A DNA stretch of 64,000 bases from NCBI RefSeq assembly GCF_037042905.1, contig NC_087250.1, positions 6,760,001 to 6,824,000 of the forward strand, read 5' to 3'. Origin of the DNA: Lytechinus pictus (taxonomy: Eukaryota). The first letter of the stretch is position 1, and every line of letters begins with the position of its first letter. The position numbers were made by a program, and so were the translations under genes. Below the pieces are notes generated by a model. It ran no database searches, had not been told where the DNA came from, and was given only the letters and a program-made list of their open reading frames with translations. This document shows, in pieces, positions 10,248 to 34,719 of the stretch.

Positions 10248-12272
10248 ATGATAATAATTATTACGATAATAGTAATACTAATAATGATCATAATAATAAC
10301 AATAATAAATGAATAAATAAATAATGAGTGTGATGATTGCAGTGCGACAAGAGTTGGAAATGACAGCCTTCTTTACTCATATATTTATAACGAGAACAAT
10401 TTTCAAAGTATAAGACCTTTCCCCCCGCCCCCCACCCCTCCCCTCCCCCAAAAAAAATCTCCCCAAACACATTTGCAGGCAGAAAAATCCTTGACACAAG
10501 AATGCTACTATACCGGCCTGCAAGAGACCCGATCGATAACTCATGAATATTCAATATACAATATACAATAGCGAATGGGCGAGTAGCGTTTGGTGAGGGA
10601 CATCGTACCGCTCTGTCATTGGTCAATTCCGAGCTGAATGCCTACGCACACTCGCCTTTGCTCTGCCCATAGAAGTATGTCCATTGCTACACACAGCCTT
10701 TATATCACACGTGTCTATAGGGAAATCTTGATTCAGATCGCGGCAATATCCGAAATCAACTCTTCAAAATAATGATGCAAAAATACCATTTTACTCATAA
10801 AATGTTTATATGACAAAATCAATTGTGAATTCCTTGCCAATATAACAACATAAAAAACACAAAATATGGTGTTGATTTTCTGGCTGTAAATTTGGTTAAA
10901 AACAAACAAAGTTATTTGGGCAACTATAGCTGCAAATGGCACAAGACGGCTATCATGGGCGACTATAGCTGCAAATGGGTCTTAAAGAGTTAATAAATAT
11001 TATAATAAAATTTTCTTGAATTCTTAATGACTAAATTATCCCTTTTCAGAAAAAAATATCAACAATATCACAGTTTCATATGTTTCATATCGCGCTTAGA
11101 AAGAGGAATACGAAAGTTGTCCTTAGACCTAGAATGTCAAGGTCCTATGTCAAAATAATAATGAAGATATCAGCTCGCGCTTCACACTCGCATCATTTGT
11201 TAAGTGCTTTCCACATCCACTTTACAATTTCCCTACACAATGCTTTAGATAGTGCTCAAATTCACCATTTTCATACCGGAATATCAAGTATTTTCCGCTC
11301 GCGCTTCGCGCTCGCATTATTGATTGTCGTGAAAATAATATCAAAATGCTCAGATTCTGTCTAACTCCAAAACACGCGCACAACATTGAGATACGCAGCT
11401 TCATCTTTATTCAAAACGTGCTTAAATTGTCTAGTTTCAGATCAGATCGCGCTTTGAGCTCGCATAATTAATGTAGGAGGAAATCAAATTACCCATCCTT
11501 TTTCATTATTTAAAAAAGATGATTAGAGTGTCCCATTTTTAGGTCTGAAATCTCAAAAAGAAATTCCGCTTGTGCTTCGCGCTCGCATCAATTGTTTTGG
11601 AATTATACCTATACCGTTAATGATTACAAAAAGTGCTAAGAATTTCATTTTTTTTTTTAGGTCAGAATGTCAAAAGAAATTAAGTTAGCACTTCGTGCTC
11701 GCATTATTTAAAAGTTAAAATATGTATTGTTTTGATGGCTAACTGCAAAACCTCCTTAACACGTCCCTTTTCTATCAAGGCAGAAACCAAATTAAAAATT
11801 TCTGCTCGCGCTTCACGCTCGCAGTAATTATCTACTTTTATACACCTCTCTTTAAAAATGTCGAATAATCCATTCTTCTGATTGGTCAAAAGTTGGGTCA
11901 TGTATTTGACCATGCCTGCAAAACAACAAACTAAGGTGGTTTCCAAGGGCAACGGGCATAGTTCACAAGATTTCTGCCCGTTGCCCCCTGATCCGCCCCT
12001 TAACAACGGGCATGGTTAAAATTTGGTGAAATTCGCATTTGTTTACGTGCAAAAAATTGCTCTGTGCGATGATTGCGGATACCATAATTTCACCGCGATT
12101 TGTGGTCGATAAATTCAGACAGCTCGCGCGTTCGACGCGCATACGCGCTGCGCAGACGATTATTTCGCCGTAAATTATCGATTAAGCGGATCGCTAATTT
12201 GCAGACTAGTACTAGGCCCAGGTCTGTCCCTACGTTTCATCTCTTTTTGTTCTAAAAACGCATTTTTGGTGC

Positions 12273-13610
12273 ATGATGGCAGAAGCTAATCTTCCAAGAT
12301 TTGAACTCCTTGATGATGATCAATTAAAGGATTTAATGGACTCTGCGGACAGTAAGAACACTAAATGTGCAGTTAAGTATGCCTTGAAAATTTTCGAAAA
12401 TTACTTGTTGCAAATCAACTCAGACCTTAGTAACGTAGACAAGCTGTCTAACTCTGAACTGGACCGCGTTATGCAGAAGTTTTATGCTGGTGCTAGACAG
12501 AAGAACGGTTCGCTTTACAGCAAGAAATCGATGTTATCCATCAGATTTGGACTTCAACGTCATTTCCTTAGTTCGAAGAATGTAGACATTATCAAGCACG
12601 ATGATTTTGCCAATTCAGCAAGAGTTTTCAAGTGTTTCTCGGCAACTCTCAAACAGAAGGGCAAGGGATTTGTGAAACACAAGCCAGCCATTTCACCTGA
12701 AGACATGGAGAAGATTCAACGTTCACTTGATTTGGATGATCCACAAGGTCTTCAAGATAAGGTATTTATTGATGTGATGTTGCATTTTTGCAACCGTGGC
12801 AGAGAGAATTTGCAAGAAATGACAGTTGACAGTTTTGAAATTTGCGAAGAAGAAGGAAAGTGTTCCTACATTAGTTTCAAAGATACACTCACTAAAAACA
12901 ATCGTGAAGACAAACTAGAAAAAAGCCAAGGGGGTATCATTGCTCCAACAAATGGATCACGTTGTCCTGTTGCCTCATTCCTTCGCTACAAAAGTAAACT
13001 GAACCCACAATGTAAATGGTTCTGGCAAAGACCAAAACCTAAGCATTATCTTGATCCAGCTTCATTTGGTCCATGGTACTGTAATGCTCCCCTGGGGAAG
13101 AACACCATCGGAGATAAGATGAAAACGATTTCATCTCGTGCTGGAACCAAAGTCTACACCAACCATTGTTTGAGGGCTACCAGTATCAGCACCCTTCAAA
13201 ATGCAGGATTCCGAGATAGGGAGATCATGAGTGTGTCAGGTCATCGATCAGAAGGGAGTCTCAAACACTATGCTAGTACAAGCAGTGATACAAAAGAGAA
13301 CATGAGCCGTGCTATCGCGACAGCTGTTGATCAAAATAAATCAGCACCAGCCGGACCTGGGCCTAGTACTAGATCTACAACAGAAATCCCGGAATCTTGT
13401 CTGACTTCTGGTGCAAAAAGTGAGAGCCAGGAACTCCATGAATTGCAGCAAATACTGGACGACTTCACAAATAACAGAGAAGTCTTTGCACAACCAGCTC
13501 GGCCAACATGCAATATCACAACGAATAGTCATGCTCATCTGTCAAGCCATCAAGTCCAAGCCCCAACCTTCAACATCCAAAACTGTGTTGTAAACATCTA
13601 CAATAAATAA
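12273..13610 (+). CDS. Crypton tyrosine recombinase (DUF3504/KCTD1-KIAA1958-like family), 445 aa, intronless
   Basis: Catalytic set R175 (NRGRE), K208 (TKN), H298-x-x-R301 (NHCLRAT), H324 (SGHRS), Y333; also CPV, FWQRP, WY..PLGKNT and the C-terminal FNIQNCVVNI motif; AATAAA at the stop and at 13741. Confidence 0.93.
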   Translation: MMAEANLPRFELLDDDQLKDLMDSADSKNTKCAVKYALKIFENYLLQINSDLSNVDKLSNSELDRVMQKFYAGARQKNGSLYSKKSMLSIRFGLQRHFLSSKNVDIIKHDDFANSARVFKCFSATLKQKGKGFVKHKPAISPEDMEKIQRSLDLDDPQGLQDKVFIDVMLHFCNRGRENLQEMTVDSFEICEEEGKCSYISFKDTLTKNNREDKLEKSQGGIIAPTNGSRCPVASFLRYKSKLNPQCKWFWQRPKPKHYLDPASFGPWYCNAPLGKNTIGDKMKTISSRAGTKVYTNHCLRATSISTLQNAGFRDREIMSVSGHRSEGSLKHYASTSSDTKENMSRAIATAVDQNKSAPAGPGPSTRSTTEIPESCLTSGAKSESQELHELQQILDDFTNNREVFAQPARPTCNITTNSHAHLSSHQVQAPTFNIQNCVVNIYNK

Positions 13611-13995
13611 CAATCTCTCGCCTTCGGTGTATATATGTTTGAAGTTCAACAAGTTTTCATTGAAAATGTTACTGTTCGCGTGTTTGAAAAGAAAAATGGA
13701 TCTTTGACTTTGTAACTTTGGTGTTAAGGAGTTCTACTTTAATAAAAGACTACATTTTGGATTGAAATTGAGATTTAAAGTTAGTCGCATGGATAAACTT
13801 TTCAAGGTCTACTATTGTTAACCTGTTTTCTTCTAAATATGACCCCCAACGTAAGAGTAATTGAATGCTTTTGAGATGACAGGATCACATGACATTGACA
13901 ATGACAGGTAAGGCATTTCCTTTTTTTTGTATAGATCTAGGCCTATTTCAAATATTATGCTTAAGATAAGTTAAACTTAATTCGGCATATAAAAC

Positions 13996-14159
13996 ATATA
14001 TTGACTGCTTTAATATTCGAGGCATGGTTATTTCCATAGGCTCTCGGGTACCTACAACTTGCTATGACCCCGCGGCGCAAGCGCCTTGGGGTCATAGCAA
14101 GTTGTGAGGTCCCCTCGAGCCTATGGAAATAACCATGCCTCTCATCGCAGTCAATATAT
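13996..14159. repeat. Subterminal long hairpin of the Crypton
   Basis: Nested stems ATATATTGACTGC/GCAGTCAATATAT, GAGGCATGGTTATTTCCATAGGCTC/GAGCCTATGGAAATAACCATGCCTC, ACAACTTGCTATGACCCC/GGGGTCATAGCAAGTTGT. Confidence 0.95.
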
Positions 14160-15279
14160 CTATAATATACGCATCTTGTTCAGGTTCACAAACATTGCCC
14201 AGAAAAGTCAATTTTCAGGTTAAAATAATTATATACATGCAATTCCAAAAATTTTCAGCTCGCGCTTCGCGCTCGCACTATTTAAATAGGGCTTATAAGA
14301 TAATTACACTTTTTATGTTGTTTTATAAGAATAAAGCGTAGAAATGACAGTTAGGACATCGGCGTTTTGCCCCCCCCCCCCCTTATTTTTCATGGCCAAG
14401 AAAAAAAGAGAAAAGGAAAGGGATAAGGGAAAAATATAGGCTTATCATTTTCGAAAAACGTTATGTCAAAATCTACAAAAACTCGTTCGCTCGCAAGTTC
14501 TTATTAATTTTTACGTGATACGCTGTATTTAGCCCCCTCAAAATTTTTGGATCATTTCTCCACTGGGAAAACCCCTTCAAAGAAACAAATTAAAATCAAC
14601 TTTGAGTGGCCGATCTGGGAAAATGTGGGTGAAAAAAAATGTCGGGCCCACCTATTGGCAAGAGCTGGATTCGCCCCTGCCATCTGCAAATCTTTACAAA
14701 CCCAGAATTCGATCATAATTTGTATGTCACCGTAGCATAAGATCATTTGTTTTGGTAATCTTTGTAGTGGCGTAGTATACGGGGGGCCAGGGGGCACTTG
14801 CCCCTCCCTGAGATTTGGTTTGCCCCCCCCCCCTGAAAAAATTGACGGAGCAAAAAAAAAGGGGGGAGAAAGAAAGAAAGAAAAAAAGGGGGAAAGATAG
14901 AAGAAAAAAGAAGAGGAAAATGAGAGGAGGAAGAGGAGTGAATAATATAAGGTGAAGGAAAGACTTTCTTTTTTATGTCACTATACAACAATTTTGCTCA
15001 CGCTTCCCGCTCGCATTGCCTTTTCCATGAGATTAATATCTTGCTCAATATAGGCTGATATGGAGCTTATTAAAGTATACATCCAAAGAAAATTCACGAA
15101 AGTGATGATTATATACAAATTATATATGAATGGAAAGGTCTTGTCTTTTTATACACAAATATGTCACTAAAAAGTCTTATTGATGTCCTGGAAATGCAAG
15201 AAATGAAATTATTAGAGACCCTTCTCAGCCCCCAGCCGCCCCCAGACAGACAGTCACGCGATCAAAAACAGTCGAGAAT

Positions 15280-34145: not shown

Positions 34146-34719
34146 TTATACAAATATACAATGACACTCGAGGATCTGGCTCAAACTATTCGCATCGAAG
34201 GAACATCACATAGTACTATGATCCCGAGGGCCATCGGCCTGAGGGAGAATAGTACTATGTGATGTTCCTGAGTGCGAATAGTTTTAGCCTGTTCCGAGAA
34301 TGGGTCATTGTATATTTGTTTTATATCCCTTCCACTTATATCATTTTACAGCGAAACGATTTTTAATAAGTGGATATAGTCAACAATCGTTGAGAAGTTG
34401 AAAAAATAATAAGTCTTGCCGTATGGATCGTCTGTTCAGCGAGCGCACCTGGTTAGTGCAGCTAGCCGAAAGTTTCCCGTGGCATGCAGTGGAGAGTACC
34501 GTTTGGCTGAGCAGCGCTCTACTCGCATCGCGCCGCACAGCTCGCGAATCGCGACGTAAAAAACGTATAGTTCACTTTTTTCCCTAGGAAAATAATGGAC
34601 TATGCGTGACGTCAGCAAGGAAAATGAACTATTTTATGGCAAACGTTGTTCGTAGTAAAACTATTCTTTTTCTCCTTGTGTACACTCTCAATACAACAAT
34701 CTTAAGTAAGGGATATAAT
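34146..34719 (-). mobile_element. Putative non-autonomous Crypton-like element
   Basis: Terminal 170-bp hairpin (34150-34319) followed by TTTATATCCCTT; far end AAGGGATATAA; mirrors the layout of the 11838-14170 element; no ORF. Confidence 0.6.

Follow-up and report, generated by a model that had tools for sequence, protein, structure and literature searches.

The window analysed here is a 64,000-nt stretch of Lytechinus pictus DNA (assembly GCF_037042905.1, contig NC_087250.1, forward-strand positions 6,760,001 to 6,824,000, counted from 1). It carries on its plus strand, at 11838..14164, a 2327-bp transposable element. This element is very probably an autonomous Crypton, young and structurally complete, and apparently of the CryptonA type of animals; its only gene encodes a Cre-like tyrosine recombinase. 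The 5' boundary at 11838 is exact and the 3' end lies at 14164; both are common to all copies and are further supported by paralogous empty sites and by a joint present in public contigs. When copies are aligned across the genome, every one opens with TTATA(N)ACCTCTC… and closes with …ATATATCTATA. The placement in CryptonA is suggested by the description of relatives and by domain content.

The tyrosine recombinase (YR) gene is a single-exon open reading frame (ORF) of 445 aa at 12273..13610 (+), stop included, within a frame of 464 aa from stop to stop. It is the sole long frame inside 11838-14164, where Pfam gives only recombinase-type domains; the only other frames of at least 150 aa in the window (176, 171 and 150 aa) have no Pfam match. 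An earlier note, made from this DNA alone, had described an uninterrupted 445-aa ORF retaining R175, K208, H298, R301, H324 and Y333, and translation confirms all six residues, which make up the catalytic R-K-H-R-H/W-Y set, at those positions. Its remark that the rest of the coding sequence in the window is decayed was checked against the ORF list and these three Pfam scans. The protein matches Pfam Phage_integrase at 29.9 bits (cutoff 27.1), with sub-threshold matches to DUF3504 (24.3, cutoff 29.7) and QRICH1 (23.7, cutoff 30.8). At E ≤ 0.001, homologues comprise 322 proteins among 3036 word-sharing candidates, and an exhaustive search returns 6,920 cluster representatives at the same threshold and 559 at E ≤ 1e-30. 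The nearest named relatives are echinoderm, the best being a 98% identical 'uncharacterised protein' of sea urchin. Many relatives are automatically named KIAA1958-like, ZMYM-like (e.g. ZMYM2-like) or 'QRICH1 C-terminal domain', and many carry PF12012.

In the AlphaFold model (mean predicted local distance difference test score 77.9) the core lies mostly above 90, and residues 357-434 are disordered and without a domain. The top Foldseek match is Cre-loxP (E 3e-6, probability 1.00, about 350 aligned columns over both domains), with further matches to QRICH1, archaeal XerA, Tn1549 Int, IntI and lambda Int. As modelled, the protein is a Cre-like two-domain YR fold. A PDB sequence search with the single protein gives nothing meaningful; the family profile aligns TNH298CLR301AT…SGH324…Y333 to the HxxR…GH…Y box of the solved XerA (5hxy, E 3.1e-5). 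The earlier reading of the locus as a Crypton encoding a YR is borne out by the fold, the Pfam match above cutoff and this alignment. Among 40 homologues, K208 and R301 are invariant, and R175, E178, H298, H324 and Y333 are at least 90% conserved. R175 and K208 are assigned from conservation and from the Cre pattern, RxxE followed by K in the beta-hairpin, and not from a residue-level alignment. Within residues 357-445 (13341-13607), the extreme C-terminus (…FNIQNCVVNIYNK), which follows the disordered linker, is also conserved in the family, with C438 at 90% or more. In Cre, the C-terminal helix docks in trans; by analogy, …FNIQNCVVNIYNK could be a trans-docking peptide.

Insertion, copies and derivatives

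The flanks of the element in the window belong to a dispersed repeat: a right-flank 23-mer has 1,338 matches in the genome (≤2 mismatches) against 0 in the control. Thirteen of the 20 fetched flank-repeat paralogues match both flanks, with at most five mismatches over 22 ungapped nucleotides spanning the junction, and the remaining seven are divergent on the left side. One paralogue reads …gtaattatctagtt·acatacgc… where the window reads …gtaattatctactt|element|atatacgc…. Furthermore, contigs of a public run (run X2) connect 11837 directly to 14165; these empty sites are paralogous, not allelic. The uninterrupted paralogues and the contig joint therefore place the insertion exactly at 11838-14164, without duplication or loss. 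The same holds for an internal-deletion derivative on contig C7 (query positions 1-198 fused to 1819-2332, 98-99% identical), where three of ten flank-repeat paralogues show no more than one mismatch across the junction and the other seven are ungapped with 6-8 mismatches.

The earlier note had taken the element to position 14170 and had placed a hexamer at each end. Both hexamers are present, TTATAC at 11838-11843 and ATATAC at 14165-14170, but the second is target DNA and not an element end, and the true end is 14164. ATATAC is assigned to the host because no other copy has the same hexamer at this place and because uninterrupted paralogues carry it in the form ACATAC. A repeat search of the element finds no inverted or direct repeat linking the two extreme termini. 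The statement that terminal inverted repeats are lacking consequently stands for the extreme ends, but the last ~180 nt form a long imperfect palindrome with an inverted 9-nt copy of the 5' terminus at its inner edge. Within the shared boundaries there is none of the DIRS/Ngaro hallmarks (a reverse transcriptase/RNase H ORF, inverted or split direct terminal repeats).

Two candidates were set aside in defining the insertion. Neighbouring ~120-bp periodic units proved too divergent to serve as the empty site, and genome-wide paralogues were used in their place. In Tn916, coupling sequences are carried along from the previous site; the 6 nt left of the Crypton are ruled out as such a carried sequence by their presence in uninterrupted paralogues. 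The ~120-bp units, which contain GCTCGCGCTTCGCGCTCGCAT, surround the Crypton at 11156-11828 and 14241-14282 and occur also at 14990-15016. The flanking dispersed repeat itself has about 1,340 copies genome-wide and very high depth in contigs of other organisms examined.

The genome searched for copies comprises 811.7 Mb in 368 contigs, and the DNA query was 11838-14170. Besides the window copy itself, a full-length copy on C7 is 98% identical over query positions 1-2330, a copy on C11 is 92% identical and interrupted by an insertion, a copy on C18 is 75% identical and 5'-truncated, and C8 holds a fragment covering query 1-546. In a six-frame protein search, intact ORFs of the family are found on C6 and C7, the C11 copy contains six stops and the C18 copy is decayed; more distant recombinase loci, at 47% identity or less, are many, and a number of them are intact. 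The intact C6 and C7 ORFs differ at 11 of 1338 positions (3 synonymous and 8 non-synonymous differences), with no stops or frameshifts, and the 5' non-coding parts of these two copies differ at 16 of 435 positions.

Dozens of further loci match only query positions 1-306 (84%) and 2141-2331 (77%) and constitute a short family of about 1.2 kb, whose ~700-bp interior is non-coding and unrelated to the ORF. With one member as query, at least 30 full-length copies are found at 85-100% identity, four of them at 99-100%. A 33-mer from the family 5' end occurs 152 times (≤3 mismatches) on contigs C1-C21, against 0 occurrences in the reversed control. Since some derivative copies are 99-100% identical, their ends have been mobilised recently. 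The divergence of the short-family ends from the autonomous element makes their mobilisation by this particular recombinase an inference. The single-copy syntenic gene that the earlier note had named as a refutation is not what is found: there are a second intact copy, decayed copies and ~150 family 5' ends at unrelated loci. Nor do the other copies differ in their boundaries, which are common to all. Intactness and near-identical derivative copies suggest that the element is potentially active.

Two head-to-tail pairs of short-family elements (C20; C7:282002) show the joint …CCATATATCTATA|TTATAAACCTCTC…, i.e. CTATA|TTATAA, and the element proper is therefore TTATA…CTATA. These natural joints are chromosomal and not circles; they have the same form as the joint sequence that the earlier note had predicted, …TCTATA + TTATAC + ACCTCTC.

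Nine public runs with a share of at most 0.09 each, none recorded as RNA, were available, and the contigs of four were examined. They contain the paralogous empty-site joints together with low-depth pieces of the ORF, near-identical in one organism and belonging to a frameshifted relative in another.

A separate Crypton family of 1895 bp is present at C9:13844575-13846469 and on C2 (L081/L082), with two copies 99.5% identical and an intact 475-aa ORF. Genome-wide, 70 recombinase matches reach E ≤ 1e-20, many of them intact, and several Crypton lineages in this genome look young.

Target site and terminal structures

The target follows the pattern AATAT-N6|N-TAT, in which a 7-8-nt spacer separates two short AT-rich half-sites, and insertion is orientation-specific. 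The att-like core previously proposed, a TTATAC/ATATAC direct repeat, gives way to this bipartite site; TAT is the only sequence common to the element 5' end and the target. The left half in the window is host DNA at 11827..11837 (+), with A-11, T-9 A-8 T-7 and then the 6-nt spacer CTACTT (CTAGTT in paralogues). The right half is host DNA at 14165..14170 (+), reading A, TAT, AC (ACATAC in paralogues).

In 42 non-redundant left flanks, A-11 occurs 28 times, A-10 27, T-9 37, A-8 41 and T-7 30. Positions -6 to -1 are variable, although -1 is A in 26/42 and never C. In the right flanks (n=38), +1 is variable (G once), followed by T+2 in 36, A+3 in 33 and T+4 in 36. Against the window composition, the binomial p is 6e-19 for A-8 and 6e-16 for both T+2 and T+4. 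A hold-out set of 40 further copies, picked by pattern from element position 7 onward and giving 37 independent flanks, replicates this core, with T-9 and A-8 in 31 flanks each, A-1 in 25 and T-7 in 19; A-11 and A-10 are weaker. The 6-nt spacer matches the element's own TCTATA at 2.2/6 positions, 1.8 being expected.

At the left junction, +1 is the element's T (at least 36/40 copies), and at the right junction it is the target's base (T in 9/38). The final joint is therefore confined to one phosphodiester. All 42 copies of the first sample have the same first hexamer, and in the unbiased sample it reads TTATAA in 33/40; an alternative junction structure is found at none of 79 left and none of 38 right junctions. 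Of the seven deviant hexamers, three differ by a single substitution; two belong to copies whose right junction is normal but accompanied by flank duplications, and two to copies that lack a 3' end at the expected distance. The normal right junctions with duplications, or the missing 3' end, rule out their interpretation as the second product of a 6-bp staggered exchange. In the two copies with flank duplications, L118+L143 (C17:20069535-20070865) and L114+L146 (C13:1554487-1555817), the first hexamer is replaced and 10 or 25 nt of the right flank are directly repeated on the left side; they are rare, aberrant products of insertion.

In three of about 80 insertions the element has landed precisely at the 5' junction of one already resident, two being short on short (C20, C7:282002) and one short on a member of a second family, Y. 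Such insertions are expected because a 5' junction of this kind regenerates the target. Palindromic flanks at two insertions are features of the host repeats there. A 337-copy repeat (L083-L092, e.g. C2:5573837-5573937) forms a palindrome with a 20-bp stem, GACGTCAGACCTCGATATAT-CCAAAA-ATATATCGAGGTCTGACGTC, whose apex is a perfect target for the window Crypton; two of its copies are closely followed by recombinase ORFs from a family with 46% identity to that of the window Crypton. At two positions of the window insertion, element and target coincide. Element position 6 (11843) is C, as is +6 of its own target, where other autonomous copies have T; the target has T at +2 (14166), as does the element, where 19/20 paralogues have C. 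These matches could reflect heteroduplex patch repair over +1 to +6 or coincidence, in a single case.

The 3' end of the Crypton is occupied by a long hairpin, an imperfect palindrome of ~165 nt at 13996..14159 (+), which as single-stranded DNA folds to -67.9 kcal/mol (z -15.4, 0/200 shuffles). Directly 3' of it stands the unpaired terminal CTATA (14160..14164, +), with the crossover after 14164. On its inner side, 181 nt inside the 3' end, GGCATATAA at 13984..13992 (+) is an inverted copy of the family 5' terminus; it is R''-like in the terms used for integron attC sites and is followed by AAC (13993-13995). The 5' terminus itself, an R'-like 9-mer, is TTATACACC at 11838..11846 (+), and reads TTATATACC in other autonomous copies and TTATAAACC in the short family. 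In the short family the 3' hairpin folds to -51.9 kcal/mol (z -10.1) despite a different sequence at the stem centre. In an alignment of 23 3' ends drawn from three sub-lineages, 44 pairs are predicted, of which 7 stay paired through changes on both sides, the counts being of sequences and not of independent events.

Family Y is a mobile family recognised as the repeat to the right of one short-family insertion; its 5' 28-mer has 176 genome matches. The window holds one copy, 572 bp and non-coding, at 34147-34718 (-), with the 5' terminus TTATATCCC… and the 3' terminus …GTATA. Ten fetched paralogues and the window copy all start with TTATATCCCTTACTT…, and most copies, judged by eye and not counted, stand behind an (A)ATAT-like motif plus ~6 variable nucleotides in otherwise unrelated flanks. 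Y ends in …TTTGTATA; its 3' hairpin, ~165 nt long, folds to -57.4 kcal/mol and is separated from the end by 4 nt. Over its 572 bp, no similarity to the autonomous or short elements is detectable. Judged by sequence and predicted folding, Y, unrelated in sequence, has the same hairpin layout, terminus and target as the Crypton.

In each of the elements compared (C7, the short family and both Y copies) a single segment has at least 8/9 complementarity to the 5'-terminal 9-mer; its distance from the 3' end is 179-183 nt, and the left arm of the hairpin follows it closely. The pairs are GGCATATAA and TTATATACC in C7, GGTTCATAA and TTATAAACC in the short family, and GGGATATAA and TTATATCCC (9/9) in Y. 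In the C11 copy, GGTATATAA is the perfect complement of TTATATACC. The C18 copy carries the R''-like GGAACATAA, implying the 5' end TTATGTTCC; this copy is 5'-truncated. Between families, position 6 of the 9-mer co-varies with its partner, as does position 7. The strand with joined ends has the order [9-mer]-AAC-[stem…stem]-(C/G)TATA|[5' terminus]. For Y, joining improves the fold from -57.4 to -64.7 kcal/mol, a gain of about 7; with 25 shuffled heads the mean is -59.0 and the best -61.9. A large 3' hairpin was rejected as a general feature of the Cryptons of this genome, the last 200 nt of the 1895-bp family folding to just -15.6 kcal/mol.

Other cis features lie mainly in the non-coding ends. 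Autonomous and short elements show more than 90% conservation over their first ~170 nt. Approximately 40 nt from the 5' end, the CCAAT/Y-box-like motif CTGATTGGTC (11878..11887, +) is conserved in all aligned copies. It fits the NF-Y/CCAAT-box consensus and is a candidate promoter element. The same CTGATTGGTC stands at the same distance in the unrelated 1895-bp family (L081 ~1263-1277), whose recombinase is 45% identical. The subterminal motif ACCATGCC is present in four copies, at 11909..11916 (+), 12009-12016 (-), 14021-14028 (-) and 14132-14139 (+). These are all of its occurrences in the window, and all lie in the non-coding ends of the element; 1.19 are expected, and 3 of 100 shuffles reach four. 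The two 3' copies are not independent, because they are arms of the palindrome. A 5' hairpin at 11947..11986 (+), formed by the 12-bp perfect inverted repeat GGGCAACGGGCA…TGCCCGTTGCCC, folds to -15.4 kcal/mol (z -5.4, 0/200 shuffles) and is kept in the short family. Finally, a 19-nt perfect inverted repeat (+) has one arm at 12206..12224, 49 nt upstream of the ATG, and the other at 13354-13372, in the part of the ORF that encodes the disordered C-terminal region; neither arm has changed in the C7 and C11 (92%) copies. The CTAGGCC / TAGATCTA motifs, which are related to it, are found again in the 3' non-coding region and in large numbers in the short-family interior.

Proposed recombination mechanism

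In the mechanism proposed, the recombinase would bring the two ends together (…CTATA|TTATA…), either in a circle or in an equivalent synapse, and the joined ends would then recombine with an AT-rich target. Exchange of one strand pair at a fixed site would be followed by replication or repair, which would complete the junction. Together with the inverted 5'-terminal copy at its foot, the conserved 3' hairpin probably belongs to the recombination site. The movement of these ends by this recombinase, the joined-end (circular) form and the role of the hairpin in the site are all suggested by sequence features. Tyrosine recombinases cut the two strands 6-8 bp apart. Here a heterologous region lies between the half-sites, yet only one junction type is found, and exchange of a single strand pair is therefore the most likely course. 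It is tentatively proposed, at a confidence well short of even, that this Crypton lineage and Y use a folded hairpin in the recombination site, the 5' terminus pairing with its inverted copy at the hairpin foot to form an attC-like or CTX-phage-like site whose crossover falls at the edge of an unpaired spacer; a single strand pair would be exchanged with an AT-rich double-stranded target, and replication would finish the junction.

Several observations weigh against this account of the element. Neither a circle, nor an empty allele, nor a transcript is observed in the assembled contigs of the low-share runs, none of which is recorded as RNA. The ratio of non-synonymous to synonymous differences per site (pN/pS) between the intact ORFs is ~0.7, from 3+8 differences, so that selection on the ORF is not demonstrable, and the short-family ends are just 84% (5') and 77% (3') identical to those of the autonomous element. 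The window copy has private changes in its 5'-terminal 40 nt, including the C at position 6, and its own cis-competence is uncertain. Its inverted 9-mer matches at only 7/9 positions because of the C at 11843. The gain in folding upon joining is just 0.7-1.8 kcal/mol in the two families other than Y and nil in the window copy. Four of 40 unbiased copies have strongly deviant 5' hexamers, and two of these have the 10- and 25-nt flank duplications, which the model does not predict. Moreover, single-strand exchange is argued from recombinase geometry and from the absence of alternative junctions, a pattern that biased mismatch repair would give as well.

A classical mechanism of the Goodwin type is a possible, though doubtful, explanation of the same data. 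It would bring a double-stranded circle to a double-stranded target, with two ordered strand exchanges over a short shared core and the 3' palindrome as an accessory (binding platform, terminator or replication pause site). This is the published Crypton model, and the Chlamydomonas CryptonF events, with a CACCG terminus, a CAYCG target and clean excisions, fit it as far as the consulted parts of the two accounts go (PMC9977147, PMC3212892). A shared core is indeed available here, TAT being present in both the element 5' end and the target, but it is only 3 nt long and is not centred on the joint, being confined to one side of it; the joint is at one phosphodiester on both sides. Similarly, the sequence of the joined ends in linear double-stranded form (AATATAT-CTATA|T-TAT-A) is like that of the target AATAT-N6|N-TAT, offset by 1 nt, but the spacer is heterologous (2.2/6 against 1.8 expected), and the second product expected from a staggered exchange over heterology is absent from 79 left and 38 right junctions. 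The marginal folding gain of the joined ends in two of three families favours the classical scheme, which nevertheless leaves unexplained the same hairpin and inverted 9-mer at the same distance in an unrelated family.

It is very improbable, although no search was made for a Rep/helicase partner, that other machinery, such as a Helitron-like rolling-circle or another single-strand transposase, moves the ends, with the recombinase ORF as cargo or resolvase. IS200/IS605-type elements share the absence of duplication, asymmetric ends, a 3' hairpin and insertion at a fixed motif. The same traits, with the hairpin in a subterminal 3' position, are given for Helitrons in the relevant part of the curation guide (PMC8969392), but the termini here differ from 5'-TC…CTRR-3' and the insertion point does not fall between A and T. 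The tyrosine recombinase is the only gene inside the boundaries, and two half-sites around a 7-8-nt spacer are typical of tyrosine-recombinase core sites as the Crypton survey presents them (PMC3212892). Least probable of all, and hardly credible, is a domesticated Crypton-derived host gene, related to KIAA1958, ZMYM or QRICH1 and no longer mobile: the annotation names of relatives, the sub-threshold DUF3504 and QRICH1 matches and the presence of QRICH1 among the fold matches point that way, but the sequence is multi-copy with identical ends at unrelated loci, sits in a dispersed repeat with uninterrupted paralogues, has non-coding derivatives sharing both ends, shows a pN/pS of ~0.7 between two copies, and retains the complete catalytic set that DUF3504 genes lack in the part of the survey that treats them (PMC3212892). 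The element is a genuine young Crypton and not a domesticated gene.

Cryptons are the least understood class of eukaryotic DNA transposons, and their animal group gave rise to the KIAA1958, ZMYM2-4, QRICH1 and KCTD1 domains. The present family offers two natural recombinase genes that are intact, exactly defined ends and the sequence they form when joined, a family of short non-coding elements as substrate, and a 15-nt target pattern. The hairpin and inverted terminus provide a concrete structural hypothesis with built-in compensatory-mutation tests. If the folded site is real, the element would be the first demonstrated case, among eukaryotic transposons, of tyrosine recombination by the single-strand, replicative branch; this would explain how Cryptons can gain copies and would link eukaryotic transposition to integron/CTX single-strand recombination. 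If it is not, the element is still a well-bounded reference Crypton for echinoderm annotation, where relatives are automatically named as host genes.

Comparison with known systems

The cis-architecture of the Crypton is apparently undescribed: a literature search, in the portions of the sources it reached, found neither a terminal hairpin nor a bipartite target reported for any Crypton. Nor did it find an account of movement observed in an animal Crypton, or of a biochemical test of the recombinase of one. Sea-urchin and other animal Cryptons, with their non-autonomous derivatives, have been described, and no terminal repeats were found in them according to the relevant sections of the survey (Kojima & Jurka 2011, PMC3212892). 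In the Crypton entry of the curation guide, a short terminal direct repeat is the sole distinguishing feature (PMC8969392). As in CryptonA (Crypton-1_SP of sea urchin, CryptonA-1_OL of medaka), in the parts of the survey that describe it, there are a single DUF3504-related recombinase gene without a C-terminal GCR1_C domain, no repeats at the extreme ends, an echinoderm-type host and derivatives that share ends only and outnumber the autonomous copies (PMC3212892). Unlike that survey, whose CryptonA description gives neither terminal repeats nor a target site, the present analysis defines the ends, the joint, the bipartite target, the hairpin and the inverted terminus; the element may still be identical with a family already deposited in Repbase.

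The first observed Crypton activity is that of CryptonF in Chlamydomonas, for which the corresponding parts of the account give a 5-nt core, clean excisions and an unexplained gain of copies (PMC9977147). Like CryptonF-1_cRei, the only Crypton known to have been observed in movement, the present element makes no target duplication, and the increase in CryptonF copies hints at a process beyond cut-and-paste (PMC9977147). Unlike it, the element belongs to another Crypton group with other domains and has 3 shared nucleotides plus a second half-site in place of a 5-nt core (CACCG/CAYCG). A hairpin is not mentioned in those parts of the CryptonF-1_cRei account (PMC9977147).

Cre-loxP, the best two-domain structural match, has the same catalytic residues and two half-sites around a 7-8-nt spacer; here, in contrast, the spacers are unrelated and the half-sites are just 3-5 nt long and AT-rich. 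Cre needs identical spacers and exchanges both strand pairs. Helitrons are alike only in the 3' hairpin and the lack of duplication, the present element having the ends TTATA…CTATA and a tyrosine recombinase.

The integron attC site is an imperfect palindrome built as R''-L''…L'-R', with R'' and R' as outer boxes, an unpaired central spacer, an inner stem, a variable top and the recombination point in R'; one strand is exchanged and resolution is replicative, as described in the sections consulted (PMC2727003, PMC3458562). The Crypton is not a member of that system: its host is eukaryotic, its recombinase is of the Crypton/DUF3504 lineage and not IntI, and its stem is much longer. The comparison is limited to how the site may work. 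Once the ends are joined, the order is [9-nt R''-like]-AAC-[long stem]-CTATA|[9-nt R'-like = 5' terminus], a layout present in three families; the joint falls where spacer and R' meet, and only one junction type is found.

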